DNA from: Candidatus Omnitrophota bacterium
GTDB lineage: Bacteria; Omnitrophota; Gorgyraeia; Duberdicusellales; 4484-171
Assembly (NCBI GenBank): GCA_021735655.1
Contig: JAIPGM010000002.1
Coordinates: forward strand, 258,747-322,746
Direction of reading: 5' to 3'
Length of the DNA stretch: 64,000 nucleotides
The notes under the pieces were generated by a model that saw nothing but the letters and a program-made list of their open reading frames with translations, did no database searches and was not told the origin of the DNA. Shown one piece after another: positions 7,394-42,391 of this stretch (the stretch's first letter is position 1; the number at the start of each line of letters is the position of its first letter). Made by a program: the position numbers and the translations under genes.

Positions 7394-7464
7394 ATTAAAA
7401 TTATATCATATCTTTGCTATAAACAAAGACTTGAGAGTTAAAATATGCGTGCTATAATAAGACC

Positions 7465-25813: not shown

Positions 25814-27310
25814 CTAGAAAAAGAGATCTCTTTCGCCTTCTTTAATCCTTCGATAATAACTCATGAATTGGTCAAAAACCTGAGGGATGTTTTTGCGGAC
25901 TTCCTCTATTTCTTTCGTGATTACTTTCTCAGCTATATTTTTAGTTTCCTCGCTGGCAAAATCATCTAACCATTCACGAAAAGTTAAAACAGCATTTAAT
26001 TTACAAAATTTACCTTCTTGACCAGTTTTAAGTAACTCCATAATGCATTCACCCGTTCTGCCGCAGCGATAACCAGCAGTACAAAAAGAACTGATTACCC
26101 CCATTGAGGCAAACTCTCTAATCATCTCATCTAGGCTACGAGTATCAGCCAAAATAAATTGCTGTCGGGGGCTGTCTTGAGTTTTACTCTGATCGCTGTA
26201 TGAACCAATTCCTATTTTGGTAGAAGCATCAGTTTGAGTTATTCCTAGCCTGATTGAATCTCTCTTCATCTGAGGGGTTTCCCGACAAGTAATAATTAGA
26301 CCAGTATGAGGCACAGCCAGTCTAAGCACAGTAATTAACTTTTTAAACTGCTGATCCGAAACCTTATATTTTAAATTATCATTAAAAGGCGTGTTTTCTG
26401 CCGGTTCAAGGCGTGGAAAAGATATCGTATGAGCTCCGACACCAAATTTATCCTCTAATTCACGATTATGCGCAACCAAGCTCATTAGCTCAAACTTCCA
26501 ATCGTAAAGCCCAAATAAAACACCCAAGCCAACATCATCAACCCCAGCCTCAAAGGCACGATGCATCGCATAAAGTCGCCAGAAGTAATTTCCTTTTATT
26601 GTAGTTGGCGGATGAATAGTTTTATAGGTGGTCTTATGGTAAGTCTCTTGGAAAACTTGATAGGTACCAATTCCGACATCTTTTAGACGACCCAATTCCT
26701 CTATCGATAAGGGCGGAGCATTCACATTTACCCGACGAATCTGACCAACGCCATTTTTGGTTTTCTCCCGAACATTATAAATAGTACGAATTGAATCAAC
26801 CATGTAATTTATATCATTCGAAGGATGCTCTCCATAAACGACAATTAAACGTTTATGACCAATCTTACCAGCCAAAACAGCGGTTTCCTTCTCAACCTGC
26901 TTTAAGCTTAAGACTCGGCGTTCACTCTTTGTGTTAGATCGTCTGAAACCACAATAAAGACAATCATTAACACAATAATTCCCAAGATAAAGCGGAGCAA
27001 AGGTGACGATTCGATTGTCATAAACCTTTCGCTTCACCCTTAAGGCGCATTCCTTCATCAATTCTAATGTTTTAGAATCAGTTACCCTTAAAAGGGTTGC
27101 CGTCTCATCAAGAGTTAAAGTTTTAATCGCTAAGGATTTATTTAAAATGTCTTCGACTTCTTTGGAATCAGGCTCCTGAGTGCATGATAATTTCGTAAAG
27201 ATTTCTTTCTGAGGAATAAAATCCTTACCCTCAATCATATAACGCTCAATTTGGTCGCGCTTTATACGTTGAGACTCCCAACTCTGAAATTTATTAGTCT
27301 TAATTAACAT
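25814..27310 (-). CDS. HydG-like radical-SAM tyrosine lyase (ThiH family with C-terminal Cys-containing extension)
   Basis: 498 aa. Radical-SAM CxxxCxxC in ThiH/HydG context (PLYLGNYCVNDCLYCGF). Too long for ThiH (~375 aa); C-terminal ~100 aa carry SFCTAGYRCGRTGEC...C, resembling the HydG C-terminal auxiliary-cluster region. Confidence 0.65.
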   Translation of the reverse strand: MLIKTNKFQSWESQRIKRDQIERYMIEGKDFIPQKEIFTKLSCTQEPDSKEVEDILNKSLAIKTLTLDETATLLRVTDSKTLELMKECALRVKRKVYDNRIVTFAPLYLGNYCVNDCLYCGFRRSNTKSERRVLSLKQVEKETAVLAGKIGHKRLIVVYGEHPSNDINYMVDSIRTIYNVREKTKNGVGQIRRVNVNAPPLSIEELGRLKDVGIGTYQVFQETYHKTTYKTIHPPTTIKGNYFWRLYAMHRAFEAGVDDVGLGVLFGLYDWKFELMSLVAHNRELEDKFGVGAHTISFPRLEPAENTPFNDNLKYKVSDQQFKKLITVLRLAVPHTGLIITCRETPQMKRDSIRLGITQTDASTKIGIGSYSDQSKTQDSPRQQFILADTRSLDEMIREFASMGVISSFCTAGYRCGRTGECIMELLKTGQEGKFCKLNAVLTFREWLDDFASEETKNIAEKVITKEIEEVRKNIPQVFDQFMSYYRRIKEGERDLFF

Positions 27311-27952
27311 CTAACTTCCCTGCTTTACAAAAAATATTAAACTCTCTAACTCACAAGCCATATCAACGTTAGAAACAAATATATTATCAGGAACTTTCAA
27401 GGCAATTGGAGCGAAGTTAAGTATTCCCTTAATATTTGAATCGATTAACTGGTTAGCTATGTCTTGAGCTACTTCAGGCGGCGTAGCTATTATTGCTATT
27501 TTTATTCCATCTTTTTTAATCATTTCACTCAAATTATCAATAGCCTGAACTACGATACCTTTTTTTGTTTTACCAATCTTTTTCTGATCATTATCAAAAA
27601 TTGCAGTAATTTTTATATTAAACTTTGAAAAACCATCGAACCCCAACAAGGCCCCACCGACTCTACCTAGGCCTACCAAAGCAATATTCCAATCAATATG
27701 GGTTCCGACTATTTTTTGGATTTGTCCAATTAAAAAATCTACGTTATAGCCCACACCGCGCTTGCCAAATTCACCAAAATAAGACAAATCCTTTCTAAAC
27801 TGAGACGGAGTTACGTTTAAAAACTTAGTTATTTTATCCGAAGAAATAACTTCAACTCCCTGCTTTTTTATTTTTCGTAAGTTACGTAAATACAGAGTAA
27901 GCCTTCTGATCGTTTCCAAAGAAAAATGTTTCTTGTCTTTACTGTTTTTCAT
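27311..27952 (-). CDS. rex: Redox-sensing transcriptional repressor Rex
   Basis: N-terminal winged-helix domain (RLTLYLRNL...) plus Rossmann NADH-binding domain (IALVGLGRVGGALL); 213 aa. Confidence 0.85.
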   Translation of the reverse strand: MKNSKDKKHFSLETIRRLTLYLRNLRKIKKQGVEVISSDKITKFLNVTPSQFRKDLSYFGEFGKRGVGYNVDFLIGQIQKIVGTHIDWNIALVGLGRVGGALLGFDGFSKFNIKITAIFDNDQKKIGKTKKGIVVQAIDNLSEMIKKDGIKIAIIATPPEVAQDIANQLIDSNIKGILNFAPIALKVPDNIFVSNVDMACELESLIFFVKQGS

Positions 27953-29270
27953 CAGATACTCTAGTATCCCGAGCTATACCTAAATCGGTAGGCGCCCGGC
28001 CTAAAGATTTAAGTAAATTAATAGTCTCAGTAATCTGATCATTAATCTCCGCTTCGCCATAGGCCTTATTAGGATAAATTGCATAATACTTTCGATATTT
28101 ACGCGGAGTTAAATTGAGCATTACCGAATTTCCACCCGAAGACAATCCTTTCTTGCGTGCCTCTAAAGATAAGGTCTCAAAGGCTGTGGTTATAAGAATT
28201 TTAGCCGCTTCTGGATCGATTAAACGAGCCAAAGCAAGGTTTTTTAAAACTTCTTCTTCAGAAGGAGCTTTGCAATTGGCCAAGAGACTATTCGGGTGAG
28301 GCAAAAATGGCCCAAATGAGTACATCTCAGAGCCCAAAGCCTTAGTTAGATAAATATCATTTATCGTATCTTGATTAGTTTGACCAGGCAAACCAATCAA
28401 GGCACCAGTCATAACTAAATACCCTAATTCATGGGCTTTTTTTAGATGATCCAGGCGACTATCTAAAGTTTGGCCAGGATGTAATTTCTCATAGATTTTA
28501 GGATTTGAAGTTTCAAAACGCATCAACAATGCTCTTGCCCCAGCCTGATAAAGCTTAAGCAATCCATCAAGCCCGACTTCACCAAAGCTTATACAAATCA
28601 AAACTGGAACCGTTTCTTTAATTTTTCTTATAATTTCCGCTAGATCATCTATGCTATAGTGTGGGTCTTCTCCCGATTGCAAAACTAAAGCCTGGAAACC
28701 ATACTCTTTAACGGCACCAACTGCCGTCTCAATGATTTCCGCCGCTGACATTCGATAACGCATAAGATTCTGGTTGTCAGCTGAAATACCACAATATTGA
28801 CAACTCTGCTTACAAAAATTAGATATTTCGATTATCCCATGAATACAACATGAATTTTTATGGTACTTTTGACGCAAAAAGTTAGCGGTTCGATAAAGAA
28901 TATCTTGAGCCTCAGGCTTATCTAACTTAAGTAAATAAAATAACTCTTCTTTACTCAATTGAATATTTTCTAAAGCTTTATCTAAAATAAGACTTAGCTG
29001 CCTGTCGATATTTTTTTTGCTAAGATCCAAGCGAGACAATCGTAAGTCCATATCCTGAAGTTCGAAAAAAAGCTCATTCCAAGCTGCCAAGGTCTCCTCA
29101 GCCTCCTTTGGGGAAACTTTTTTAATTACAAACCCGCCTTGAGCCGACACATAATCACCGGGTTTGATATCATAAAACTCATTGATTGCTTTTTTTTCTT
29201 CACCAAAGTAATCAACCAGAACGGTTTTCCCAACTATTTCTTTTACCTTGCCAGGTATTGCATAACACAT
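27939..29270 (-). CDS. HypC-domain (N-terminal) fused to HydE-like (BioB-family) radical-SAM enzyme
   Basis: From the second Met: MCYAIPGKVKEIVGKTVLVDYFGEEKKAINEFYDIKPGDYVSAQGGFVIKKVSPKEAEETLAAWNELF, the HypC/HupF signature (MC-x-A-IP...GDYVLVHVGFAI...EA.ETL). A ~40-aa linker follows, then a HydE-type radical-SAM core (IEISNFCKQSCQYCGISADN; Fe-S/SAM motifs; ~350 aa). A single uninterrupted frame of 443-447 aa. Confidence 0.7.
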   Translation of the reverse strand: MCYAIPGKVKEIVGKTVLVDYFGEEKKAINEFYDIKPGDYVSAQGGFVIKKVSPKEAEETLAAWNELFFELQDMDLRLSRLDLSKKNIDRQLSLILDKALENIQLSKEELFYLLKLDKPEAQDILYRTANFLRQKYHKNSCCIHGIIEISNFCKQSCQYCGISADNQNLMRYRMSAAEIIETAVGAVKEYGFQALVLQSGEDPHYSIDDLAEIIRKIKETVPVLICISFGEVGLDGLLKLYQAGARALLMRFETSNPKIYEKLHPGQTLDSRLDHLKKAHELGYLVMTGALIGLPGQTNQDTINDIYLTKALGSEMYSFGPFLPHPNSLLANCKAPSEEEVLKNLALARLIDPEAAKILITTAFETLSLEARKKGLSSGGNSVMLNLTPRKYRKYYAIYPNKAYGEAEINDQITETINLLKSLGRAPTDLGIARDTRVSDEKQ

Positions 29271-29284
29271 AACAAACTCCAATT

Positions 29285-29527
29285 TTACTCTACATCAAAC
29301 GATAGCACCTGTATCACTGTTCCCGGGAAAAAAGTTAGCTCTAGCTCAGCCTTAGCACAAGGAGTCCCCTCAGCTAAAATTTTAAAGGTTTCTCTAAATG
29401 AATCCTCCTTGATCCCGTTCAGCTCACCGATTTTTATATGTATCTTAGACACTACCTTTGAGCCTTCTTTTTCAGCGTGTTCACAAATTCCTTTAATCAA
29501 TGGTTTTATGATATGGGTTTCGTGCAT
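29285..29527 (-). CDS. hypA: HypA N-terminal (nickel-binding MHE) domain protein lacking the zinc-finger domain
   Basis: Starts MHETHIIKPLIKGICEHAEKEGSKVVSKIHIKIGELNGI, matching the HypA N-domain (MHE Ni-site, ...IGELSGV...). Only 80 aa; no CxxC...CxxC zinc module. Flanking genes leave no room for it. Confidence 0.55.
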   Translation of the reverse strand: MHETHIIKPLIKGICEHAEKEGSKVVSKIHIKIGELNGIKEDSFRETFKILAEGTPCAKAELELTFFPGTVIQVLSFDVE

Positions 29528-29982
29528 GTTTTTACCTCAATAATTAAATTAGTTAATTCCTTTAATGTTTTAGCAACACTTTGTGAAATCTCATCACCAA
29601 ACTCAAGAGTTTTCGGTTGCACCCCTAAAAGAAAAATATCAGCTTCGGTTTCTTTACCCAAAAAATCTAAAAACATCCTTGGTGATAAATCATGAGTAGT
29701 GAATCCCGATTTCACGATATCTTCCTTAACTAAAATCTCATAATCTCCTGGCTCTTTACCAAGATCAACAACATCAACTATTAAAATCGTATTTGGACGT
29801 TCTTTGGTTATTTTGCCAATATAGTTTTCTGGTGCTGAACCAACATCAATACAGGTTGCATCCACTTTCTGGTAAACAGTCTCAATGAACTTAGGACCGA
29901 AAGCATCGTCACCACGCATAATATTTCCTACCCCAACGATAACGACTTTCCCTTTAAAAACATTCCGAAAAATATTATTCAT
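29506..29982 (-). CDS. hycI: [NiFe]-hydrogenase maturation endopeptidase (HycI/HyaD family)
   Basis: VVIVGVGNIMRGDDAFGPKF...DVGSAPENYIG...ILIVDVVD motifs of hydrogenase C-terminal-processing proteases; 158 aa. Confidence 0.8.
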   Translation of the reverse strand: MNNIFRNVFKGKVVIVGVGNIMRGDDAFGPKFIETVYQKVDATCIDVGSAPENYIGKITKERPNTILIVDVVDLGKEPGDYEILVKEDIVKSGFTTHDLSPRMFLDFLGKETEADIFLLGVQPKTLEFGDEISQSVAKTLKELTNLIIEVKTCTKPIS

Positions 29983-30022
29983 AGTGTAAAATAAAATTTA
30001 AATGAAACTGTCTTAGTTGATA

Positions 30023-30634
30023 TTACTCAGCAGTAAGGGTGGTTTCACGTCGACAGCGGGCGCATAGAATCTTAACTCGATCAGAACGCCCATCATCCCT
30101 TAAAGCTGAAACAATATTTTCATCTACAATACCAAGACTTTTAAGATGGGAAAGATAAAGCGTAGGACTTGAGTAGGTAAGCTCACCTAATTTTTGAGAA
30201 ATCCATTTAAGGTGATCTTTGCAGGCTATTACATCGCCGCAAACTTCACAAAGTTGTAGTTCTTTTTCTATTTGTTCTTGGGCTTGAGCGCGGTCAAAAA
30301 ATGATAACTCCCAATCAGTAGATAACTTAATACCTTGCTTATCAGCCAAACAGGCTGCTTCACACTGTCCACAAAAAATACAAGTATCAGTATAATGAAT
30401 CATCAGCCGCTTAGGATCATCTTTATTTTCAGTAATATCCTTATGAGAAATCGCTTCAACTGGGCAAACCTCTTCACAACCGCAACAACCAACACATTTT
30501 TGATCATTAAACTTCGGCTGACCGCGAAAGTTAGGATGAGCCACATGGGCCTCTTTAGGGAACTTTGACGTGTAAGGCCCCTTAATCAATGCCTTGATTG
30601 CTTCAACCAACTCTCTTAATTTTGGCAACTTCAT
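30023..30634 (-). CDS. NuoI/MbhN/HycF-like 2x[4Fe-4S] ferredoxin subunit with C-terminal Cys-rich extension
   Basis: CVGCCGCEEVCP and CIFCGQCEAACL cluster motifs in NuoI arrangement, plus extra CEVCGDVIAC and CARCRRE motifs. Confidence 0.6.
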   Translation of the reverse strand: MKLPKLRELVEAIKALIKGPYTSKFPKEAHVAHPNFRGQPKFNDQKCVGCCGCEEVCPVEAISHKDITENKDDPKRLMIHYTDTCIFCGQCEAACLADKQGIKLSTDWELSFFDRAQAQEQIEKELQLCEVCGDVIACKDHLKWISQKLGELTYSSPTLYLSHLKSLGIVDENIVSALRDDGRSDRVKILCARCRRETTLTAE

Positions 30635-30652
30635 AAATTTATCTTAAAAAAG

Positions 30653-30727
30653 AAGCGTAAAACGTAGTCTAGACTCAATATTCTTGAATCACCCGTGGCT
30701 AAAACTTTTCGTCTACGTTTACGCTTC
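30653..30727 (-). repeat. Intra-operon long-stem inverted repeat (15-16 bp arms, ~44-nt loop) between mrpG-like and nuoI-like genes
   Basis: GAAGCGTAAAACGTAG at 30653-30668 and its complement CTACGTTTACGCTTC at 30713-30727; the right arm overlaps the last codons of the mrpG-like ORF. Confidence 0.35.
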
Positions 30728-31057
30728 TCCTTCCTTATCCTCTTTATATTTATCAATTACACTACCTTCCCAAAGTTTAACCCCGGCCCGATGGGCTCCT
30801 CTGGCTACAGCATGGGCAGCTACCGGCGAGGTTAACAAAAGAAAAACCGCACAAAGAAGCGCCTTAAAGCCCGCGGCAATAAAGCCAACAATTAAAAATG
30901 TTCCAAAAAGAATACTACAAGTTCCTAAAGTAACACACTTGGTGGCTGCTTGAAGACGATTATATACATCCGGAAGTCTTACCAAACCTAAGCAACCAAC
31001 TATATCAAAAGCTAACCCACCGGAAATGAATATCAAACCAATAATATCACTCATCAA
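30719..31057 (-). CDS. Mrp antiporter subunit G-like (MbhC-like) membrane subunit
   Basis: RLPDVYNRLQAATKCVTLG...TSPVAAHAVARGA matches the MrpG/PhaG signature; 3 TM. Confidence 0.6.
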   Translation of the reverse strand: MMSDIIGLIFISGGLAFDIVGCLGLVRLPDVYNRLQAATKCVTLGTCSILFGTFLIVGFIAAGFKALLCAVFLLLTSPVAAHAVARGAHRAGVKLWEGSVIDKYKEDKEGEA

Positions 31058-31442
31058 ACCCTCTTCCCTCTAAATATTTCGAAAGAGCTAAGGTGCTAAT
31101 AAAACTTTGAAGCGCCCAAGCAATTCCAATATCCAGATACCAAGATCTTCCAGTCGAAATAGTTAAAACTGCACAAAGCCCCACAATCATAATCCCTAAA
31201 ATATCAATCGCTACAATTCTGTCGGCTCCGGTAGGACCTTTAGCAATACGATAAAGCGCCAGTACACATCCTAGAATTAGAATGTAAAGTGCCCTCCCAA
31301 CAAGACCACTATAGACGAGATTTTCAGGAAAAAGAAAACCAAAAGGCCTAAAAATAATTAAGCCTAAAACAATACTAAGGGTAGTTGCTCCAAACAGCCA
31401 ATTTAACATCTTTTTGCTTTCAGCTTTTTTCTTTTTAGCCAT
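31047..31442 (-). CDS. Mrp antiporter subunit F-like (MbhB-like) membrane subunit
   Basis: YRIAKGPTGADRIVAIDIL motif typical of MrpF/PhaF. Confidence 0.55.
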   Translation of the reverse strand: MAKKKKAESKKMLNWLFGATTLSIVLGLIIFRPFGFLFPENLVYSGLVGRALYILILGCVLALYRIAKGPTGADRIVAIDILGIMIVGLCAVLTISTGRSWYLDIGIAWALQSFISTLALSKYLEGRGFDE

Positions 31443-31447
31443 AGTAA

Positions 31448-31945
31448 TTATTCAAATATTTTTCTTAATATTTTCTCAAACCGCTCAATAATAACTTTGG
31501 TAGCAGCTTCAGTCTGAGTTTCCTTCACGTCAATCCAATGTACATATAAAACACCATCATCCTTGTCAATATCTACAGTTAAAGTTCCTGGAGTAAGTGT
31601 TATTGAATTCGCTAAAAATGTAAGCGCTGTATCTGTCTTAAGCGTAGTTTTCACCTTAACAATGCCAGGTTTTATCGGTAAATTAGGATGTAGAATCCTG
31701 TAGGCAACATCAATATTTGCTTTAAAACACTCCCATAGAAATCTCGGAAGATAATAAACAAAAAAATACCAGTATCTCAAAGGGTGCTTAAGGACATGAG
31801 GACGTTTTACAAACAAATCTCCGGTTAAAAAAGCACAAAGAGCGGCTGCGAATACACCAATAGCTAGATGCTGCCAATCCGGTACCCAGTTCAATAAGCA
31901 CCATACAACAAAGGCAACTAAAAATAAAACTATTTTTCTTTTCAT
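31448..31945 (-). CDS. Mrp antiporter subunit E-like (MbhA-like)
   Basis: 165 aa with two N-terminal TM helices and soluble C-terminus; position and size match MrpE. Confidence 0.45.
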   Translation of the reverse strand: MKRKIVLFLVAFVVWCLLNWVPDWQHLAIGVFAAALCAFLTGDLFVKRPHVLKHPLRYWYFFVYYLPRFLWECFKANIDVAYRILHPNLPIKPGIVKVKTTLKTDTALTFLANSITLTPGTLTVDIDKDDGVLYVHWIDVKETQTEAATKVIIERFEKILRKIFE

Positions 31946-33441
31946 TGGACTGCTCTGATAATATTTATTGTGTAGTTTTTTGTGCCAAGCAAAACCCCAG
32001 AGGCTTTAAGCAGGAATTGTTCTCTTATCCCCGGAAAAAATAAAAACCCACCTAAAAGGCAAACTAAAACTAAGATAATCATCGAAGCCTTCATGAAAGC
32101 AGGCACTTCAGTAATATTTTCCCACTGTTTCCTAAGATTTCCAAAAAATGCATACTTCATAACCTTGGTAAAAGAAGCAAGGGTCAAAATACTAGCCAAC
32201 ACTGCCCAAAAACCATACCAATACTGGTTGGCCTGAACACAAGCAATAATAATAATTAACTTGCTCCAAAAACCATTAAACGGCGGAATTCCAGCGATTG
32301 ACATAGAAGCTCCAAAAGCAGTAGCTGAGGTAACTGGCATTCTTTGACTTAATCCCCCCATTTTTTTTAAATCTCTGGTTCCGGTTGTGTATTCAACAGC
32401 ACCAGAATTTAAAAAAAGAAGAGATTTGAATATTGAGTGATTGAACAAATGGAATAAGCCTCCGATTATACCTAAAGGAGTGCCCAAACCTATCCCCAAA
32501 ATAACATAACCAATCTGGCTTATTGAATGATAGGCAAGCAAACGTTTCAAATCCCACTGTCCGATAGCCAAAAATACACCAACCACCATTGAGAGCGCAC
32601 CGAGCGCCATCAAAATCATTGAAAGCTGACTATTCACACCTAAAATATTAAAGAATATACGGCAAAGAGTGTATACTCCTAATGATTTAATCAATACCCC
32701 AGAAAGCATAGCTGATATTGGAGCTGGTGCTGAAGGATGAGCATCAGGAAGCCAGGCATGAAACGGCACCAAAGCTGCTTTTAAACCAAAACCCATAAGA
32801 AACAATACACTTACTAATATTAAAACATTTGGGCAGTCGGCTTGAGACAAAACTAAACCCATATCAGCCATATTTAGGGTTGAAGTGCAACTATATAGAA
32901 ATACAATACCTAAAAGAATAAATAATGACCCTACGGTACTCATCAGGGCATATTTAAAGGCGGCTTCAAGCTCATGGCGTTCAGTTCCAAAAGCAACCAG
33001 AGCATAACTAGCAACAGAGGCAATCTCTAAAAAAACAAAAAGGTTAAATATGTCGCCAGTTATCAAAACCCCGTTCATCCCTCCCAACATCAATAGAAAT
33101 AAGGTGTAAAATTTCCATTTAGCGGTGAACTTTTCCATGTAGTTAATTGAAAAAAGAGCTACACAAAAAGCAACTAAATTAACCGTAACTAACATAAAAC
33201 TAGTTAGACCGTCTAAGACAAAAGTTATCCCGATTGGCGGCTTCCAAGATCCAGCAGCATAAACCAACACTCCATGCTCAGCCACAAGTTTTACACTGTA
33301 AAGCGACAAAAATAAAAGAGCTGTTGTGCATAAATTACCAATTAAATCCGGCAGCCATTTACTTTTTTTACCAAACAAAACAGTTAAAAAGGCACCCGAA
33401 AGACAAACTACAACAAAAATTGGTATAATATTAGAACTCAT
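31942..33441 (-). CDS. MrpD/NuoN-like proton-pumping antiporter subunit
   Basis: 499 aa, ~14 TM, conserved antiporter-fold motifs (…AHSSISQIGYV…, NSGAVEY). Confidence 0.75.
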   Translation of the reverse strand: MSSNIIPIFVVVCLSGAFLTVLFGKKSKWLPDLIGNLCTTALLFLSLYSVKLVAEHGVLVYAAGSWKPPIGITFVLDGLTSFMLVTVNLVAFCVALFSINYMEKFTAKWKFYTLFLLMLGGMNGVLITGDIFNLFVFLEIASVASYALVAFGTERHELEAAFKYALMSTVGSLFILLGIVFLYSCTSTLNMADMGLVLSQADCPNVLILVSVLFLMGFGLKAALVPFHAWLPDAHPSAPAPISAMLSGVLIKSLGVYTLCRIFFNILGVNSQLSMILMALGALSMVVGVFLAIGQWDLKRLLAYHSISQIGYVILGIGLGTPLGIIGGLFHLFNHSIFKSLLFLNSGAVEYTTGTRDLKKMGGLSQRMPVTSATAFGASMSIAGIPPFNGFWSKLIIIIACVQANQYWYGFWAVLASILTLASFTKVMKYAFFGNLRKQWENITEVPAFMKASMIILVLVCLLGGFLFFPGIREQFLLKASGVLLGTKNYTINIIRAVQ

Positions 33442-33443
33442 AT

Positions 33444-33779
33444 CTATCCCCGCAACTCTCTAATTTTAGTAATATCAAATGTTTGATACTTTTCATAAAT
33501 TCGCATAGCGATTGCAATAAGCAAAGCTGTTGATGCCAAACCAATAACAATTGAAGTCAAAACTACTGCCTGAGGTAAGGCATCGACCATATTATTAATT
33601 GTTGTGTCTGGTGAATATATCGGAGAACGCCCCTTTATCCGATAAGCAACTAAGATAAATAAAAGATTTACTGCATATTCAGCGATGATAACACCAATAA
33701 TAATCTTAATTATATTACGTTTACGTAAAATACAATAAAGACCAACACAAAAAAGCACCAAACAAAGCAAGTAGATCAT
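33444..33779 (-). CDS. MrpC/NuoK-like small membrane subunit
   Basis: 111 aa, 3 TM, NuoK-like size and hydrophobicity. Confidence 0.55.
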   Translation of the reverse strand: MIYLLCLVLFCVGLYCILRKRNIIKIIIGVIIAEYAVNLLFILVAYRIKGRSPIYSPDTTINNMVDALPQAVVLTSIVIGLASTALLIAIAMRIYEKYQTFDITKIRELRG

Positions 33780-34231
33780 TTTCCTTCGGTTCCTCCATCA
33801 AATTTAAGCAAAGTAAGGGCAATAAATATAGCAAACAAACCGGCCCCGACCTTTAAACTAATTGCAATATTACAAAGTGGAATAATCCCAGCTGAAAAAA
33901 GTCTAAACGGCTCCCCCTTAGGAAGAAAGTTTAAAAAGAAATACCCACCAGTAAACCCCAAAAGGGCAATTGCTAAAAACATTATTGCTCCAAAACCTTC
34001 AAAAAAAGAAATAGCTTTCTTAGGCATTCTTTTTAAAGCCGCGTCTTTACCATAAGCAAGCATTAAATGAATAAAGCTGAGTGCAATAATTACCCCTCCG
34101 GCAAATCCTCCACCGGGGGAAACATGACCATGAGAAAGAATATAAATACCAAAAAGAAGTATTATGCCCACGGTAAGACGAGTAATTGTCTTAACGATTA
34201 CCGACATTCCCTTTTCATGCTCTTTGCTCAT
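33776..34231 (-). CDS. MrpB-like (MbhF/G-like) membrane subunit
   Basis: 151 aa, 4 TM; position between MrpA-like and MrpC-like genes. Confidence 0.4.
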   Translation of the reverse strand: MSKEHEKGMSVIVKTITRLTVGIILLFGIYILSHGHVSPGGGFAGGVIIALSFIHLMLAYGKDAALKRMPKKAISFFEGFGAIMFLAIALLGFTGGYFFLNFLPKGEPFRLFSAGIIPLCNIAISLKVGAGLFAIFIALTLLKFDGGTEGK

Positions 34232-34780
34232 TTATTCATCCTCTGGGTCTACTTTCTCATTAATTTTTTTACGCCCGACCCTGCGCACTAGGGTTAAAAC
34301 ACCTATTACTGCGGTAAATAAAACTGTAGCTTCACCTAAGGTGTCATAGGCTCGATAATCAAGAATAACTGAAGCAACAATATTAGTTGCTCCGGTCTTA
34401 GCTAAGCCTTGCTTAAGATAAGTATCGGCCACCCGCATAATTGGATAACCAAAACGTGGCAAATCACCAATTGCCTTATAGGCTGCAAATAAAAATAAAC
34501 TAACAAAGCCTAAAATAATTGAGGTATTAAGTAACCATCGACCACTAGTTGAAAAAGGTAAATCTTTTTTTAAAGTTGCCCGAATCAAAATGATTAAACA
34601 TAATATCTCAACTACTAATTGAGTAATTGCAACATCGGGAGCTTTGAGAATAATAAACGTTATCGAAAGCCCTAGCCCTACGGCACCGACGGCAATAACT
34701 GAGGAAAGCAGATCTTTAAGCTCAACGGCGACAATTGCCCCAACAATCATAAAAATTAATAAAATATATAGCTCAAACAT
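34232..34780 (-). CDS. Mbh-type small membrane subunit (MbhD/E-like)
   Basis: 182 aa polytopic membrane protein directly downstream of the MrpA-like gene. Confidence 0.4.
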   Translation of the reverse strand: MFELYILLIFMIVGAIVAVELKDLLSSVIAVGAVGLGLSITFIILKAPDVAITQLVVEILCLIILIRATLKKDLPFSTSGRWLLNTSIILGFVSLFLFAAYKAIGDLPRFGYPIMRVADTYLKQGLAKTGATNIVASVILDYRAYDTLGEATVLFTAVIGVLTLVRRVGRKKINEKVDPEDE

Positions 34781-34787
34781 ATTTAAG

Positions 34788-36446
34788 TTACTTTAAAAGT
34801 ATATAAAAAAGTATCCCCATACCTAAAAGACACCAGGACAAATAAGTAGATAAAATGCCATTATGCAAATAACGCAAAATACTGTTAAAGCCAAAAGTAA
34901 TTTTACTACCGACTTCATAAATATCGAATAATTTCTTATTAGCTAAACTATAGATAACCTTTAACAGGCCCAACTCTTTGATTGTGTTATAAAAATCAGT
35001 TCCTGAAACTCTCATCTCGGGATATTTTTCAGTGCTTTCTCCGCCCATAAAAATATTAACCTGGCGACTCTTTGAAACTGTGCCCAAAAGATAAACTATT
35101 AGACCAATGACCATGCCAGCAAGAATCAAAGCCGTAGCTAAACTTGCATTCCAGACTCCGGAAAACTCTACTGGCTGCCAAATAACCGGAAAGATAAAAA
35201 ACTTAAGCGGAAGCCGGTAAGCAAATACACCAAAAACTACACATAGTAAGGCTAAAATTGCTCCCGGTATCCACATCGCTAGCCCAACCTCTTTTTTCTG
35301 ATCTTTACTGAGTGCTTTTACGGTTGTGCTTTCTTGACCCAAAAATACAGCATGAACAAGTTTCATGAAACTTGCCAAAGTTAAGGCACTTCCAAACATG
35401 GCTGAAACTAACCAAACGACCCATAACCCACCACTGTTTTTAGCCGTCTCAATGATACCCTGGTAGATCATCCATTTAGAAACAAAACCATTAAATGGCG
35501 GAACCCCAGAGATAGCAAATGAAGCAATCAAAAAAGTAATAAAAGTAATCGGCATATATTTAGCAAGACCGCCAAGTTTATCTAAATTAGTAGTTTTGGT
35601 CCTTTTTTCTACAGAGCCACTGGTTAAAAATAAACAAGACTTATAAATCGCATTATTCAGCATATGAAATAGTCCACCGGCAATACCGATAATTGTACCC
35701 GTACCAATACCTAAAATCATATAACCAACTTGACTTACCGCATGATAACCAAGGAGTCTCTTTAAGTCATGTTGGACTAAAGCCATCATAACCGCAGCTA
35801 TAATAGTAAAGCTACCGATAAACATCAAAAATGTATTCATGCTTAAACCTAAACGAAACATTTCCAAGGAAATTCTAATTAAAAGATATATTCCCAAAAG
35901 TTTGTCCAAAGAAGCAGGCAAATAAGCCGCAACCGGAGTTGGTGAGTCTTCAGCTGCGTCAGGAACCCAGGTATGAAAAGGCATAGCCCCGGCTTTAGCA
36001 AAAGCTCCGACCGCCAAACAAAGATAGGCAAAAGTAGCCACCTTAGAAGTCAATGGTATTGATATTAAATCCATCTCGAATAAACCGGTAAGTTTCCAAA
36101 TTAAGGCAACTCCCAAAAGCATTAAAGCATCGGTTCCACCAATTATAATAAATGCTTTCTTTGCCGTAGCTGAGCTATTATCCTTTTTACCAAAGCCAAT
36201 TAAAAGATAAAGAAGCAACCCCAAGAATCCCCAGAAAACCATGAACAGAATTAAATTATTGGCAAAAACCACACCCAAAGAAGCAATCAAAGTAAAAAAG
36301 ATATAAAGGTAGTAACGTGAAATTCCACGTTGGGCACGCATGTACCCCATCGAATATACAGTTACCAAAATAGAAAAAAACCAAATAAATATTCCGACAA
36401 ATATCGACAAAGCATCAAATCTAAAATAATTCGCTAAAAAATTCAT
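34788..36446 (-). CDS. MrpA/NuoL-like antiporter subunit (MbhH-like)
   Basis: 552 aa, ~16 TM, NuoL/MrpA family motifs (…HAVSQVGYMILGIG…, WVPDA). Confidence 0.75.
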   Translation of the reverse strand: MNFLANYFRFDALSIFVGIFIWFFSILVTVYSMGYMRAQRGISRYYLYIFFTLIASLGVVFANNLILFMVFWGFLGLLLYLLIGFGKKDNSSATAKKAFIIIGGTDALMLLGVALIWKLTGLFEMDLISIPLTSKVATFAYLCLAVGAFAKAGAMPFHTWVPDAAEDSPTPVAAYLPASLDKLLGIYLLIRISLEMFRLGLSMNTFLMFIGSFTIIAAVMMALVQHDLKRLLGYHAVSQVGYMILGIGTGTIIGIAGGLFHMLNNAIYKSCLFLTSGSVEKRTKTTNLDKLGGLAKYMPITFITFLIASFAISGVPPFNGFVSKWMIYQGIIETAKNSGGLWVVWLVSAMFGSALTLASFMKLVHAVFLGQESTTVKALSKDQKKEVGLAMWIPGAILALLCVVFGVFAYRLPLKFFIFPVIWQPVEFSGVWNASLATALILAGMVIGLIVYLLGTVSKSRQVNIFMGGESTEKYPEMRVSGTDFYNTIKELGLLKVIYSLANKKLFDIYEVGSKITFGFNSILRYLHNGILSTYLSWCLLGMGILFYILLK

Positions 36447-37630
36447 TTTATGCCTAGTTTACTTTTTATCTTTTCGGTTTTACTTTGTGAAAGGCGAACT
36501 AAATCCTCACCGTTATATATTTTTTTACCCTTAGTGTTACGTACCGCCACTCTCTCAGTACAACAATAACAAGGATCAATGGACGCTAAAATTATCGTTG
36601 CATCAGAAATCGTCTCGCCAACCACAGTTGCCTTATAGGTCGGTAAATTCATAAAAGTAGGTGCTCTTACTTTGTGACGAGCCGGTCGATTGGTCCCATC
36701 GCTTTTCACATAATGAAAACATTCACCCCGCGGCGCCTCAATATGACCGATACCTTCACCTGAAGGAATACTTTTAATCTTAGCATCAATTTCTGTATCC
36801 GGAAGGTTTAAAAGGCAATACTTAACCATATCTATCGATTCAAAAGTCTCTAAAATTCTTACTACCGCTTTATCGAAAACATCGCCATTTTTAGTCACAA
36901 TCATATTCCAGTTAAACTGATCATATGCCCCATAAGGAGAATTTTTACGTAGATCTCTGGCCACCCCCGAAGCCCGAGATACCGGACCGAGAGCACAAAA
37001 GTTAATTGCCTCATCCTTAGTGAGGATACCTATTCCTTTAGTCCTAGCATGTAACACCGGGTCATCGATTACTGCCTTTTTAAGCATTTCAAGAGTCGGG
37101 ATAATCGAATCTATCTTTTTTATCGCAAAAGGTATATCTTCTTTTTTTATGTCTCGCCGAACCCCTCCCGGCTTAAACATAGCATAGTTGTTGCGATTTC
37201 CCGAAAGTGCCTCCATAACATCAAGGATTTCCTCACGCAACTTCCAAGCCCACATATAAACAGTATTGTAACCTAAAAAATGTCCGGCAAGACCCAACCA
37301 TAAAAGATGTGAATGAATACGTTCTCCCTCAGCGATAATTGTTCGGATATATTTAGCCCTCATTGGCACTTCTAGAGGGATAACATCCTCAACTGCCCGA
37401 GTATAAGCATAAGGATGACTGGTTGAACAAATACCACAGATTCTCTCAATTACAAAAGTAGATTGGTCGAAGGTTTTTCGCTCAGAAAGCTTTTCAATGC
37501 CGCGATGGTTATAACCAATCTGAACATCGATATCAACAACTGTCTCCCCATCTACAGTTAAGCTGAAAAACTCAGGCTCTTCCTGTAAAGGGTGATATGG
37601 TCCGATTGGAACTATAGTTCGTTTTCCCAT
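36443..37630 (-). CDS. [NiFe]-hydrogenase large (catalytic) subunit, group 4 (Mbh/Ech type)
   Basis: N-terminal L1 motif ERICGICSTSH (RxCGxCxxxH) and C-terminal L2 motif DPCYCCTER (DPCxxCxxR), followed by a ~35-aa extension of the kind removed by HycI-type proteases; NuoD-like fold, 395 aa. Confidence 0.85.
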   Translation of the reverse strand: MGKRTIVPIGPYHPLQEEPEFFSLTVDGETVVDIDVQIGYNHRGIEKLSERKTFDQSTFVIERICGICSTSHPYAYTRAVEDVIPLEVPMRAKYIRTIIAEGERIHSHLLWLGLAGHFLGYNTVYMWAWKLREEILDVMEALSGNRNNYAMFKPGGVRRDIKKEDIPFAIKKIDSIIPTLEMLKKAVIDDPVLHARTKGIGILTKDEAINFCALGPVSRASGVARDLRKNSPYGAYDQFNWNMIVTKNGDVFDKAVVRILETFESIDMVKYCLLNLPDTEIDAKIKSIPSGEGIGHIEAPRGECFHYVKSDGTNRPARHKVRAPTFMNLPTYKATVVGETISDATIILASIDPCYCCTERVAVRNTKGKKIYNGEDLVRLSQSKTEKIKSKLGIK

Positions 37631-38103
37631 TATAATCCTCGATCTCTAATTGATGAGTCGTCCCACTCTTGATAATCGCGTCTCAAAGGATATACACCTT
37701 GTGGCCACTCATCGGGCAAAAGCAACCGCTTCAACTCTGGATGACCGCGAAAATTGACTCCTAACATTTCAGCTATCTCACGTTCAATCCAATTAGCACC
37801 TTCAAATATTGGGGCTAATGAATCTATTTCTAATTTGCTCTTATCCAACTTAACCCGGAAAGAAACTACTAAATTTATATCTTCAAAGGTAAAATGATAA
37901 AGAATTTCTATATGTTTAAATGTATCTACTCCCGAAGCAATATTGAATCTGGCCCCCAAATTTTTAAAAACATAGGTCGCAACCTTAACAATCGCCTGAG
38001 GTTTAATCTCAATATAGACCCGAGTTAAGGTCTTATCGAAAATATCTAAAATATCTTCGTCGAATCTTTTCTTTAAATCTTTAATAACTTCGCTTCTGGT
38101 CAT
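37630..38103 (-). CDS. NuoC/MbhK-like hydrogenase subunit
   Basis: 157 aa with NuoC-like (30 kDa subunit) core motif (FEGANWIEREIAEMLGVNFRGHP). Confidence 0.7.
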   Translation of the reverse strand: MTRSEVIKDLKKRFDEDILDIFDKTLTRVYIEIKPQAIVKVATYVFKNLGARFNIASGVDTFKHIEILYHFTFEDINLVVSFRVKLDKSKLEIDSLAPIFEGANWIEREIAEMLGVNFRGHPELKRLLLPDEWPQGVYPLRRDYQEWDDSSIRDRGL

Positions 38104-38540
38104 TTTGCTTGAGGGTTTCCAGCCCCACTTAATTTATCGATTAACTTAACAACCCCGGCAATAATCGCCTCTGGTTTCGGCGGGCACCCAGGTATATATA
38201 CGTCTACCGGAATAATTTTATCAACTGGCAAAGGACAGTTATAGCTATGAATAAACATACCTCGCGACAAAGAGCACTCACCAACAGCCACTACTACACA
38301 AGGCTTCGGCATCTGCTCATATACTTCTTTAATCCGAGGAATGCACTTTCGATTAGCAGAACCAGTTACTAAAAGCACGTCAGCATGTTTTATGCTTCCG
38401 GCTAAAAGCATGCCAAACCTTTCGATATCAAAGCGTGGGGTTAAACAATCCAATATTTCAATATCGCAATTATTGCAACTACCAGTTGAAAGATGAAAAA
38501 CCCATGGTGACTTGAGTAATGCTTTAAGTTTTATGCTCAT
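38100..38540 (-). CDS. [NiFe]-hydrogenase small subunit (NuoB/MbhJ-like, proximal [4Fe-4S])
   Basis: CNNC...GxCxxxG...PGCPP motifs (STGSCNNCDIE, VAVGECS, YIPGCPPKPE). Likely true start is the internal Met (MSIKLK...), avoiding overlap with the upstream gene. Confidence 0.8.
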   Translation of the reverse strand: MSIKLKALLKSPWVFHLSTGSCNNCDIEILDCLTPRFDIERFGMLLAGSIKHADVLLVTGSANRKCIPRIKEVYEQMPKPCVVVAVGECSLSRGMFIHSYNCPLPVDKIIPVDVYIPGCPPKPEAIIAGVVKLIDKLSGAGNPQAK

Positions 38541-39460
38541 AAACCCTTTAAGGCTAAAATAACTGCGATTATAGCAATAATCAACATTGGCCCCCAAAAA
38601 AATCTTATTGCCTGATCAATTCTAACTCTAGGATTAGTATTACGAATAACGGTGATCAAGGCAACCAAACCAACATACCTCAACACCCCGTATATAAGAT
38701 TTAAGCCGTTTAGTCTTAACCCACCAATAAAAGTAATCATTATAAAGAAAGGCAAGACAAAGAACAACATATTTTTCATAAGTTTGTATACCGCAAGCGG
38801 GGCTCCCGAATACTCAACTAACGGTCCACCAATAATTTCGGTCTCAGCTTCAGGAATATCAAAAGGCACTAAGGCTAGTTTTGCCTGTACACACATAATA
38901 ATTACAATAAAAGCCAAAAACCCCGACCAGCTTCCTAAGATTACGCCATTTTGAGCCTGATAAGTGATAATTTCACCTAAACGCAAGCTAAACCCGCTTT
39001 GAATAACCGGAACTAAAACCGCTAGAATAAATGGCAATTCATAACTTAAAACTAATTTCATTTCTCGTGATGCACCAATACTAGCTAAAGGATTGCCTGA
39101 AGCAAAGCCTCCGATAATTATGCTTATTGAAGGAATAGCCAATAAATAAACTACAACAACAATATCACCAACAAAGGTCCTCAGCGGATTAAAATTATTA
39201 AACCAAAGCACCGTAGACACAACAATAACACTCCCTAAACCAATAATCGGAGCGCTCAAAAAACTAAACTGAGAAGCGCCTTTAGGAACCAAAGTCTCTT
39301 TTCCAAGAAGCTTCACCAAATCAATAAGCGGCTGTAGGATTGGCGGCCCAACGCGATACTGAACTCGAGCGGTAACTTTACGGTCAACCCAGCTAGTTAA
39401 CAAACCAATAATGGCGGTTAACAAGAATCCGAAAATAAAAAGATAAACTAAATAAATCAT
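38537..39460 (-). CDS. NuoH/MbhM/HycD-like membrane subunit
   Basis: 307 aa, 8 TM, NuoH-like loops (…GGPLVEYSGAPLA…, EAETEIIGG). Confidence 0.75.
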   Translation of the reverse strand: MIYLVYLFIFGFLLTAIIGLLTSWVDRKVTARVQYRVGPPILQPLIDLVKLLGKETLVPKGASQFSFLSAPIIGLGSVIVVSTVLWFNNFNPLRTFVGDIVVVVYLLAIPSISIIIGGFASGNPLASIGASREMKLVLSYELPFILAVLVPVIQSGFSLRLGEIITYQAQNGVILGSWSGFLAFIVIIMCVQAKLALVPFDIPEAETEIIGGPLVEYSGAPLAVYKLMKNMLFFVLPFFIMITFIGGLRLNGLNLIYGVLRYVGLVALITVIRNTNPRVRIDQAIRFFWGPMLIIAIIAVILALKGL

Positions 39461-40023
39461 ACTTTTTCTCTATCCCAATGAGTAGAATGTACTATTAAAT
39501 TGTCACCAACTAAAAATGAATCTTTGGTTAATAAATCATCCGAATTTACTAATTTTAATGCTCCGTATGGGCATGATTTTATGCAAAGCGGTTCATTTTT
39601 TTTATCTCTTCGATCAAAACAAAAATCACAATTATGAATTAAATAAGGCACATGCTCAGGATAAATGGTTCCGTAAGGGCAAGCATGAGAACAAGTTTTG
39701 CAACTTACGCAACGCATATTATGCCTAATCAAAAGGTTGTCTTTTTCGGTTTGTTGTTCCAAAGCCTCAAATGGGCAAGCATTAACACAGTGAGGTTCTT
39801 GGCATCTACGACAAACCAAAGCATAAGTTGCCAATTCAGCTACTGAAACTATTCCATTATTTATCGGATCTTGAGTGTGGTAAAAATAGCTGCACTCTAA
39901 CTTACATTTTTTGCATTCTCCGGCCGCACAAATATCAAGATCAACAAAAAGCCGTTGACCACTATCAGATTTAGCTTCGGTATTTAATTTTCCTTGATGT
40001 AGTTGTTCGGCACTTGTATCCAT
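39457..40023 (-). CDS. Polyferredoxin (HycB/CooF-like, multiple [4Fe-4S] clusters)
   Basis: At least four Cys clusters of CxxCxxCxxxCP type (CRRCQEPHCVNACP, CVSCKTCSHACP, CDFCFD...CIKSCP). Confidence 0.65.
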   Translation of the reverse strand: MDTSAEQLHQGKLNTEAKSDSGQRLFVDLDICAAGECKKCKLECSYFYHTQDPINNGIVSVAELATYALVCRRCQEPHCVNACPFEALEQQTEKDNLLIRHNMRCVSCKTCSHACPYGTIYPEHVPYLIHNCDFCFDRRDKKNEPLCIKSCPYGALKLVNSDDLLTKDSFLVGDNLIVHSTHWDREKV

Positions 40024-40030
40024 AATAGCT

Positions 40031-40855
40031 CTAATCCCAAATATTAGGAAAATTCTTTATTTTGTCGTAAGTAAACACTGGTCCATCTTTGCAGGCATAA
40101 TAAGTCCCTAGCCGACAATGACCGCATTTACCAATTCCACAAGACATATTTTTTTCCATTGAAAGATAGATATTCTTCTCCTTAAAACCCAACTCAAGCA
40201 ATTTTTTAGTAGAAAACTTCATGGCGATTGGCGGCCCGCAAACAATAGCTATTGCCTCAGGGCAATTCATATCTAAATCATCCAAAATTGTAGTAACAAC
40301 ACCTACGTTACCTTTCCAATCAGGGCTAGCTTTATCAACAGTAAGTCTTAAATTTAAATCATCTCGCTTTGCCCAGCCGGCTATCTCAGTTTTATAGAGT
40401 AGCTCCTGTGAGGTTTTACAGCCACCCCGAAAAGACAGCTTCTTAAACTCCCCGCTTCGGGCAAAAAACTCATACATCAAACTACGCAAAGGAGCAAATC
40501 CACATCCACCACCGACGACAACGATTTCCTTACCTTTAAATTCATCAATCGGGTAACCAGTCCCAAAAGGGCCTCTCACTCCAATCAAATCGCCTTTTTT
40601 AAGCTGATGAACTTTATCGGTAACCTTGCCAACTTTCATTACCGTGACTTCCATTACATCTCTCACTGATGGCCTCGATGAAGGTGTAAATGGCGCCTCA
40701 CCCACGCCGGGAACAGTTAATTCGATAAATTGACCGGTCTCAAAACCCAAAGGCTCTTTAGGACGAAAACGTATGGTTTTAATCGTTGGCGTTTCGGTTA
40801 TTACATCAAGAACTTCGGCCTCAATCGATCTGTAAGGATTCTCGATTTTATGCAT
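40031..40855 (-). CDS. FAD/NAD(P)H-binding oxidoreductase, hydrogenase/sulfite-reductase gamma-subunit-like (PyrK/AsrB fold) with C-terminal [2Fe-2S] motif
   Basis: FNR-like domains (RFRPKEPLGFETGQFIEL; GPFGTGYP; VVVGGGCGFAPLRS) and C-terminal CGIGKCGHCRLG 2Fe-2S motif. Confidence 0.65.
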   Translation of the reverse strand: MHKIENPYRSIEAEVLDVITETPTIKTIRFRPKEPLGFETGQFIELTVPGVGEAPFTPSSRPSVRDVMEVTVMKVGKVTDKVHQLKKGDLIGVRGPFGTGYPIDEFKGKEIVVVGGGCGFAPLRSLMYEFFARSGEFKKLSFRGGCKTSQELLYKTEIAGWAKRDDLNLRLTVDKASPDWKGNVGVVTTILDDLDMNCPEAIAIVCGPPIAMKFSTKKLLELGFKEKNIYLSMEKNMSCGIGKCGHCRLGTYYACKDGPVFTYDKIKNFPNIWD

Positions 40856-41873
40856 TATCCACCAACTTCTTTAAGACTTTTCGAATATCAATTTTAGCCG
40901 GGCAAGCTGTTATACAACGGCCACAGCCGGTACAAGCATACTCAGCGGCCACCTTGGGAAAAAAATCAAATTTTTTCTCAAACCTATTACGCAATCTCAT
41001 CCAAAGCCTCTCTCGAGGATTGGCTCCGCCAGCAACCCGAGCAAAATCTTTTATCATACAAGAATCCCAAATGCGTAAACGCTCCATCTTGTCTTTATCT
41101 TTTTGATCATACAAAAGAAAACAATGGCAGGTTGGGCAAATTGCATTACAGGCTCCACATTCAACGCAAGTTTTTGCTTCGTCTTCCCAAATTTTAGACT
41201 CATAGTTTTTCTGAACCACATCTTTGAAGCTGCTTTGGTCAGGAACGGTATTTTTACTTAGGTTAGCGTTAGCTTCTCCAGTTATTTTTTCACGCTTCTT
41301 ATCTCTGGTAACAACTAGATCTTCTCGAGTTTGACGAAAAAGAAGAGTATATTGCTTCAGAATACTCTCACCTTTATCGGATCCGCTTTCAACAACAAAG
41401 CCATCATCAACCACAGAAAGATTTAGATCAAAATTATCTTTAGGATACGGTTTTAGACCTAAAGCCGCACAAAAGCAAGTATCAATTACGCAAGTGCAAT
41501 CAGCTGAAATAATAAGGCTATCCTGACGTAACTTTAAATAAAAAGGATCCTGATAATCGGGATTATCAAAAACATAGTCTTGAATTTTAAAACCTTTCAG
41601 ATCACAAGCCTTGACTCCGACAATAGCAAAAGGCTTACTCGGAGACTGCGGAAGATCCGGACTAAAACCAGAAGCTACCTTCTGACGAGCCTTCAAAAAA
41701 AATGATTTTACCGGCTCAAAAGCCCTTACCTCGCCAACAACGAATTCACTAGTCGAGCTATCGAACTTATCGTAAAACCGCTGCTGACCTTTTTTGACCG
41801 GAACAAATACCTGATAATCTTTATTTAGGTTTTCAAGAAATTTAGAAAAATTATCGGAAGAGATATAATACAT
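40848..41873 (-). CDS. Fe-S subunit, sulfhydrogenase-beta/AsrA-like (two ferredoxin-type [4Fe-4S] motifs)
   Basis: CVECGACNAICPTCHC and CTGCGRCITACP motifs; pairs with the downstream gamma-like subunit as in HydBG/AsrAB modules. Confidence 0.55.
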   Translation of the reverse strand: MYYISSDNFSKFLENLNKDYQVFVPVKKGQQRFYDKFDSSTSEFVVGEVRAFEPVKSFFLKARQKVASGFSPDLPQSPSKPFAIVGVKACDLKGFKIQDYVFDNPDYQDPFYLKLRQDSLIISADCTCVIDTCFCAALGLKPYPKDNFDLNLSVVDDGFVVESGSDKGESILKQYTLLFRQTREDLVVTRDKKREKITGEANANLSKNTVPDQSSFKDVVQKNYESKIWEDEAKTCVECGACNAICPTCHCFLLYDQKDKDKMERLRIWDSCMIKDFARVAGGANPRERLWMRLRNRFEKKFDFFPKVAAEYACTGCGRCITACPAKIDIRKVLKKLVDNA

Positions 41874-41919
41874 CAGAAGTCCTTGTTCTGTTTATGATTG
41901 ATACTTAAATTAACCATAC

Positions 41920-41940
41920 TTTGTGATTTTATTCACAAAG
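41920..41940. promoter_or_regulatory. Perfect TGTGA-N6-TCACA palindrome (Rex/CRP-type operator) upstream of the hydrogenase operon
   Basis: cTTTGTGAttttatTCACAAAg, an 8-bp perfect inverted repeat ~50 nt upstream of the first operon gene. It matches the Rex box consensus TTGTGAA-N4-TTCACAA, and Rex is encoded inside the operon. Confidence 0.5.
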
Positions 41941-42002
41941 TATTAAAGGCTAAATTAACATAAATGCTATAATCTGTCAAATATTTTTTATCTAATCGTT
42001 GA

Positions 42003-42296: not shown

Positions 42297-42391
42297 TTAA
42301 ACACCTCCGTAGTAAAATTAACCTTTTTATAATTAAACTAACGAAACTTTACCAGATTCGAGTCTCATCAAAAATAGTCACTTATCATACC

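Follow-up and report, generated by a model that had tools for sequence, protein, structure and literature searches.

The window analysed here, a 64-kb stretch of DNA from a Candidatus Omnitrophota MAG, carries a hydrogenase operon whose leader holds a perfect palindrome, and the question that this locus raises is which factor reads the palindrome and which signal it would pass on to the operon. The palindrome resembles the operator of Rex (ROP) and also the sites of the CRP/FNR family; alternatively, it could fold as an RNA hairpin or have arisen by chance. From the sequence and its conservation we consider that it probably serves as a functional Rex operator, placing the whole operon, including rex itself, under NADH/NAD+ control, and we put the probability of this reading at roughly 0.87.

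The palindrome and the operon leader

The intergenic region at 41874-42002 lies between the stop codon of a 97-aa ORF (42003-42296) and the ATG at 41873; like almost all genes of the window, both are encoded on the minus strand. On this coding strand the palindrome reads ATACTTTGTGA-ATAAAA-TCACAAAGTAT, and no other perfect inverted repeat in the 64 kb has arms of 11 nt or longer around a spacer of 3-10 nt (Table 1). The Rex consensus, as given in PMC6391272, PMC5317091 and PMC8376106, is TTGTGAA-N4-TTCACAA, an 18-bp inverted repeat. Allowing one mismatch to TTGTGAANNNNTTCACAA, the 64-kb window yielded a single match, against 0.01 expected from 100 dinucleotide shuffles. The window has no second Rex box at 0-1 mismatch, the two longer internal gaps (84 and 97 nt) contain no box, and the relaxed search at 2-3 mismatches gave only chance-level matches in the 64 kb, all of them within genes.

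Table 1. Features of the hydrogenase operon and its leader, by position in the 64-kb window
Feature	Position	Strand	Remarks
Perfect inverted repeat, 11+11 bp, 6-bp spacer	41916..41943	.	arms ATACTTTGTGA and TCACAAAGTAT, 100% complementary
Candidate core Rex operator (ROP), TTGTGA-N6-TCACAA	41921..41938	.	13/14 positions as in TTGTGAANNNNTTCACAA
Predicted -35 hexamer, TTGACA	41975..41980	-	sequence reading; invariant in 12/12 aligned leaders
Predicted extended -10, TGtTAATTT	41952..41960	-	17 nt past the -35; TG and A/T hexamer positions invariant
Shine-Dalgarno-like AAGGA	41880..41884	-	6 nt ahead of ATG 41873; sequence reading
Hydrogenase operon, 16,060 bp	25814..41873	-	gaps <=84 nt, many gene overlaps; gene order kept in relatives
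Operon head gene, ShyB/AsrA-like Fe-S protein (Fer4_22)	40848..41873	-	
Start of operon			ShyB-like, ShyC/AsrB-like FAD/NAD subunit, Fer4_11, NuoH-, NuoB- and NuoC-like
[NiFe] large subunit	36443-37630	-	RICGICSTSH and DPCYCC ligand motifs
Rest of operon			Mrp/Mbh membrane subunits, Fer4, HycI, HypA, HypC-HydE-like fusion, Rex, HydG-like
rex, 213 aa	27311..27952	-	overlaps the HypC-HydE-like gene by 14 nt; abuts the HydG-like gene

A preliminary description of this DNA had reported a perfect 8-bp inverted repeat that matches the Rex operator and is also CRP-like, lies about 50 nt upstream of the first hydrogenase gene and has no second copy in the window. The palindrome is indeed perfect and the quoted arms cTTTGTGA (41919-41926) and TCACAAAg (41933-41940) are present, but the arms extend to 11 bp rather than 8 and the start had been placed one position off. 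Both motif matches were borne out, the Rex core departing from TTGTGAANNNNTTCACAA at one position and the TGTGA-N6-TCACA core, which satisfies the CRP/FNR-type pattern, occurring without mismatch at 41922-41937; the searches at 0-1 mismatch likewise returned one site. The distance was also about right, with 47 nt between the box edge at 41921 and the ATG of the first gene, and 'upstream' was correct for minus-strand genes, although the sequence had been quoted from the plus strand.

Could such a palindrome be present by chance and without function? In favour of this reading, first-order Markov simulations put the number of perfect 11-bp inverted repeats expected in 64 kb at about 0.4; against it stands the expectation of 0.01 Rex-consensus matches per window. 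Moreover, the site does not vary among leaders whose identity is otherwise 56%, and it recurs at operon heads in different gene arrangements. Such conservation effectively refutes the chance reading, to which we attach almost no probability.

The spacer of the palindrome (41927-41932) differs between the window and its relatives, reading ATAAAA on the coding strand here and TTTTAT in the eight closest relatives that share the operon layout of the window. The window spacer is the exact reverse complement of that of the relatives (for example, L001 at 5749-5754), with collinear flanks and with arms perfected to 11 bp in the window. This looks like a loop inversion or a template-switch event in a quasi-palindrome, and it fits a symmetric dimer site that is indifferent to orientation.

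A conserved sigma-70-type promoter of the form TTGACA-17-TGnTAATTT is predicted ahead of the box. The promoter scan did not list it, TAATTT agreeing with TATAAT at 3/6 positions, and it was recognised by reading of the sequence together with conservation. Past the predicted -10 come 13 nt (41951-41939), the core box (41938-41921), 36 nt (41920-41885) and AAGGA; the full palindrome begins ahead of the core box, at 41943 on the coding strand. Transcription is predicted to start at ~41944, about 7 nt past the -10, in which case the palindrome would span approximately +1 to +29. The box thus adjoins the predicted core promoter, as a ROP does, and its position 3' of the -10 is the place expected for a repressor.

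With a start at ~41944 the palindrome would also stand at the extreme 5' end of the mRNA, where it could act as an RNA hairpin, either as a weak intrinsic terminator or attenuator against read-through from the LPS genes upstream or as a 5' stem-loop stabilising the operon mRNA. The terminator scan flagged 11 pairs with the tail GGTTAATTTA, and the predicted fold of the 92-nt leader has an energy of -22 kcal/mol (z = -5); however, any perfect palindrome folds well, and the z-score of the leader is therefore a by-product. The stem has 3/11 G-C pairs, the T-run is interrupted and is lacking beside the stem in the relatives, and the element lies 3' of the conserved promoter rather than before it. 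Among the relatives the inner 6 pairs are invariant and thus show no covariation, while the outer 5 pairs are unpaired in one quarter to more than half of them (more than half for three of the pairs), which argues that the sequence and not the structure is conserved. Degenerate right halves in the boxes of relatives with rex as first gene further weaken the pairing, and no Rfam match at E <= 1 was found in 41600-42400. In these features the palindrome resembles neither an intrinsic terminator nor a known structured RNA, and we consider a hairpin function very improbable. Across the operon, terminator-like matches are at chance level (19 versus 14.6 +/- 3.6) and are uninformative on its 3' end.

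The hydrogenase operon and its Rex protein

The operon behind this leader, which the preliminary description had given as 16 kb long, runs from 41873 to 25814 with the box at its promoter. It encodes a group 4g [NiFe] Mbh-Mrp hydrogenase with ShyBC-like subunits, a type that has been named 'group 4g Mbh linked to Mrp' or 'Mbh-Mrp-oxidoreductase' and whose oxidoreductase function has been stated as unknown (PMC8542988; bioRxiv 10.1101/765248). The host MAG also encodes LPS and lipid A biosynthesis in the same window.

Several genes of the window deserve a description in their own right. A HypC-HydE-like radical-SAM fusion (27939-29282) and a HydG-like gene (25814-27310; TIGR03955, 448 bits) lie within this [NiFe] group 4g operon, while HydE and HydG are normally maturases of [FeFe] hydrogenases. 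The arrangement is kept in relatives of the same layout, and our literature search found no description of HypC-HydE-like and HydG-like genes in a [NiFe] group 4g operon. HypB, HypD, HypE and HypF had no match among the window ORFs scanned. HypA (29285-29527), possibly a truncated or minimal form, has only 80 aa and covers positions 1-70 of the 112-position Pfam profile; its gene shares 22 nt with hycI. Outside the operon, an EF-G homologue of 1069 aa (4184-7393) has its GTPase domain from residue 382, preceded, in the ORF as called from the longest start, by an N-terminal extension of ~380 aa without Pfam match. A lactate/malate dehydrogenase-like gene at 61367-62284 is operon-internal, 10 nt behind the preceding gene, and is without a Rex box; ldh/mdh-like genes are a classic type of Rex target in Firmicutes. 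The occurrence of a single box per 64 kb, together with this box-less gene, was counted against the Rex reading.

The presence of a rex gene between the two radical-SAM genes, as had been proposed, was confirmed: what lies between the HypC-HydE-like and HydG-like genes does encode a Rex. With 249 bits the protein passes the equivalog threshold of NCBIfam NF003993 (cutoff 217), and it contains the Pfam domains Put_DNA-bind_N and CoA_binding. It matches Rex structures in the PDB over its full length with E-values of 1e-46 to 1e-36, among them 5zz5 from T. maritima (E = 1.5e-46) and 3ikt, a complex of T-Rex with DNA (E = 1.2e-43). Its recognition-helix and wing segment QFRKDLSYFGEFGKRGVGY is nearly identical to QVRKDLSYFGSYGTRGVGY of T-Rex and QIRKDLSYFGEFGKRGVGY of T. 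maritima. The Rossmann motifs GLGRVGG (GxGxxG) and FDND are kept. In S. agalactiae Rex, the bases are contacted by Arg50/Arg51 of the recognition helix and by Arg62 of the wing (PMC8376106). The window Rex has an Arg-Lys pair in the recognition helix and an Arg in the wing, which, to judge by sequence similarity, would correspond to these contacts. Just past the Rossmann motif, the structure alignment places a Phe in the window Rex where T-Rex has a Tyr, a residue important for NADH sensing, and this change may count against a Rex operator under NADH/NAD+ control.

Co-occurrence of the box and rex in related loci

A large-subunit search, with one genome kept per species, assembled 80 orthologous loci from Omnitrophota, Atribacterota, Fermentibacteria/Aegiribacteria, Hydrogenedentota and others, which fall into four layouts. 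In layout A, to which the window belongs, rex is flanked by the HypC-HydE-like and HydG-like genes. Layout B (~20 loci; Rex 38-46% identical) opens with rex, and the ShyB-like gene follows immediately. Layout C, which is Atribacterota-like, has rex after a Fer4 gene or before the ShyB-like gene, and layout D is without rex.

A consensus scan of the 1.245 Mb of related loci at <=2 mismatches returned 34 sites, and by our reading of the site table 29 of them stand at operon heads. The site matrix built from these boxes reflects sites chosen for their resemblance to the consensus. In layout A, where the eight closest loci keep the TTTTAT spacer, 44-79 nt separate the box from the ShyB ATG. In layout B the box precedes rex by 28-91 nt and is usually a pair, spaced by 21 bp, that overlaps the -10 and the start site. 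Layout C has one box ahead of the operon and a second after rex, before a NuoF/HydB-like gene, while layout D has no box. Where rex opens the operon, the box has moved to the head along with it. Overall, it was present in 24/29 rex-linked loci versus 1/11 rex-less loci with adequate coverage, for which the Fisher p of 3e-5 is only indicative, as the loci are phylogenetically dependent and independence is overstated. Of the five rex-linked loci without a box, four have 3-mismatch boxes and L069 has none. We regard the recurrence in three independent gene arrangements as a stronger argument than the Fisher p.

Alignment of 12 layout-A leaders (56% mean column identity) left three blocks invariant, namely TTGACA, the TG of the extended -10 together with the A/T positions of its hexamer, and TTGTG...TCACAA, so that besides the promoter the box is the only conserved element of the leader. 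The box also varies with the type of Rex. Proteins with the wing FGKRG[VIT]GY go with a single symmetric TTGTGAT-W4-TTCACAA box, and those with the wing FGVSG[SA]GY go with tandem boxes whose right half is degenerate; all the proteins of both wing types score as Rex. Taken together, the box is conserved in orthologous promoters and co-occurs with rex, as comparative genomics would expect of a Rex operator.

The individual loci showed further detail. The tandem boxes, two helical turns apart, occur in L007, L017, L023, L043, L067, L070 and others, with one box on the -10 and the other on the predicted start. In the rex-first lineage (L007-L072, layout B), wing residues ~60-68 read FGVSG[SA]GY and lack the wing Arg, while the window Rex and those of layout A and of the Atribacterota-like loci have FGKRGVGY. 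The Atribacterota-like rex adjoins the group 4g operon, standing after Fer4 in L028 and before the ShyB-like gene in L054. A box just after rex was located in L028 (13586), L054 (1933) and L185 (8839), and in L185 the NuoF/HydB-like gene then follows. In L050, a box (15624) comes after Fer4, with no rex inside the locus.

These patterns bear on whether the palindrome might instead be a site of the CRP/FNR family, CRP-like or HcpR1-like, with rex as a merely coincidental neighbour. Its 10-bp core, TGTGA-N6-TCACA, is exactly that of the CRP/HcpR1 consensus. In E. coli, however, the CRP consensus is flanked by A before TGTGA and T after TCACA, whereas our boxes conserve a T on the left and an A on the right of the core, the flanks of the Rex consensus. 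Neither the A-TGTGA...TCACA-T flanks nor a CRP-type position (near -41.5 or -61.5) was found, and a site 3' of the -10 suits a repressor but not class I/II CRP activation. No CRP/FNR protein was detected with Pfam among the window ORFs scanned. Across the 80 loci, tblastn with E. coli CRP and FNR gave one cNMP-binding ORF, in the box-less L073; this is a weak negative control, and the regulator co-occurrence test, which covers the window and the 80 loci only, is itself weak. The overlap between Rex and CRP/HcpR1 sites has been acknowledged (PMC5701242), and the HcpR1/CRP sites described there, for all their identical core, belong to another regulator family (cNMP-binding plus HTH), differ in flanks and promoter position, and have their regulator in a gene of a kind that does not accompany our box. 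Among the 80 loci, whether a box is present, where it lies and which form it takes all go with rex. This upholds the earlier preference for Rex over CRP/FNR, and we judge a CRP/FNR site improbable.

At 5417-5773 of L073, an Omnitrophota relative, the CRP-like cNMP-binding ORF lies directly upstream of the ShyB-like gene in place of rex, and the TGTGA-N6-TCACA box is absent from this locus. This may represent a regulator replacement.

A metagenome scan with the exact 18-mer TTGTGATTTTATTCACAA returned many unrelated or coding matches, and only the intergenic subset is informative. The neighbours of the intergenic matches included ShyB-like genes (L084, L108, L113, L123, L160), NuoBCD-like genes (L150), pyruvate formate-lyase (L130), FocA (L175), a Rex-like gene (L134), a NuoF/HydB-like gene beside rex (L185) and an oxidoreductase of the pyridine-nucleotide type (L188). 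Rex regulons typically contain genes of such classes, although the sample is small and uncontrolled. The 18-mer was also encountered within a conserved ORF of ~187 aa on ~30 contigs (L082 at 7253-7831, L086, L088, L094), which was set aside as a coding coincidence; these contigs have 45-47% G+C and several are labelled human-gut metagenome. This shows that the 18-mer sequence alone is undiagnostic outside a promoter context.

Proposed control and relation to known Rex systems

At low NADH/NAD+, Rex dimers bind the ROP, and binding of NADH releases Rex (PMC8376106, PMC5317091). By homology with the Rex family, NADH-responsive repression and autoregulation can be proposed for the operon. When reductant is scarce, bound Rex would block RNA polymerase and all 21 operon genes would be repressed. 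As NADH builds up, it would close the Rex dimer, the DNA would be released and the operon transcribed, so that the membrane-bound group 4g [NiFe] hydrogenase, which includes a ShyBC-like module of NAD(P)H type, would be made along with the products of the maturation genes, allowing reductant to be disposed of as H2. Newly made Rex would then repress the promoter again after NAD+ has been restored, which would constitute negative autoregulation. We infer both the single transcript and the catalytic direction of the hydrogenase.

The mechanism of Rex is textbook knowledge, and links between Rex and hydrogenases have been shown experimentally in Clostridia-like thermophiles. In Caldicellulosiruptor bescii, EMSA demonstrated binding of Rex upstream of the [NiFe] Ech genes, the [FeFe] hydrogenase genes, hydG and rex (PMC6391272). 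Our operon would resemble the systems of C. bescii and C. saccharolyticus in autoregulation by Rex, whose binding is EMSA-proven there (PMC6391272). These hosts are Gram-positive thermophiles with a monocistronic rex and separate target units; in Omnitrophota, by contrast, the structural genes, the maturases and rex apparently form one 16-kb unit behind a single box, as far as sequence tells. In Caldithrix abyssi, rex-hydABC likewise has rex in the hydrogenase cluster, with a candidate box 38 bp upstream of rex (PMC5317091), and its layout is that of the rex-first relatives (L007, L017, L043 and others). The enzyme there is of the [FeFe] bifurcating type, however, while rex in the window is second-to-last, ~14 kb from the operator. 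The Ni-CODH/ECH operons of Parageobacillus and Calderihabitans are comparable in having a Rex consensus 31-37 bp upstream of group 4 [NiFe] operons, and their expression follows electron-acceptor limitation (PMC13077300, PMC7306483). They differ in that the Ech is linked to CO dehydrogenase, the hosts are Bacillota and rex is located elsewhere in the genome.

The original Rex/ROP systems of S. coelicolor, B. subtilis, S. aureus and S. agalactiae share with ours the 18-bp inverted repeat near the -35/-10 and the combination of winged-helix and Rossmann folds; their Rex is a dimer that releases DNA upon binding NADH and frequently regulates itself, as would be the case here (PMC2883068, PMC8376106). 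Their hosts are Gram-positive and their targets are respiratory or fermentation genes such as cyd, ldh, adhE and pfl. Rex is apparently absent from most Gram-negative bacteria (PMC8376106), whereas the Omnitrophota host has LPS and lipid A genes in the very window that encodes Rex.

Our literature search found no report of a Rex-controlled hydrogenase in Omnitrophota or Atribacterota. What is new, then, is the host (Omnitrophota, Atribacterota) and the enzyme class, a group 4g hydrogenase with an oxidoreductase module; also new is the layout as a single unit with rex near the 3' end and with the HydG-like and HypC-HydE-like genes included. A wider generalisation, which we offer as a tentative and rather doubtful idea, is that Rex and its ROP, more than a single target within a global regulon, form an operon-embedded NADH sensor that travels with the group 4g hydrogenase in Omnitrophota and Atribacterota, shifting in position and co-evolving with its operator.

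Since Rex senses NADH and the operon starts with an NAD(P)H-type ShyBC-like module, the proposed regulation hints at what the oxidoreductase module of group 4g hydrogenases may do. If the generalisation is true, the Mbh-Mrp-oxidoreductase enzymes of group 4g would physiologically draw their electrons from NAD(P)H through the ShyBC-like module, and the complex would be NADH-oxidising, H2-evolving and ion-coupled. Through the shared promoter, redox control would extend to the maturase genes, the unusual HydG-like and HypC-HydE-like ones, and the signal that turns on the hydrogenase would turn them on as well. Rex, usually described as a Gram-positive regulator, would thereby be extended to LPS-bearing candidate phyla, and the operon would provide a concrete regulatory model for the H2 metabolism of Omnitrophota, an uncultured and poorly understood phylum.
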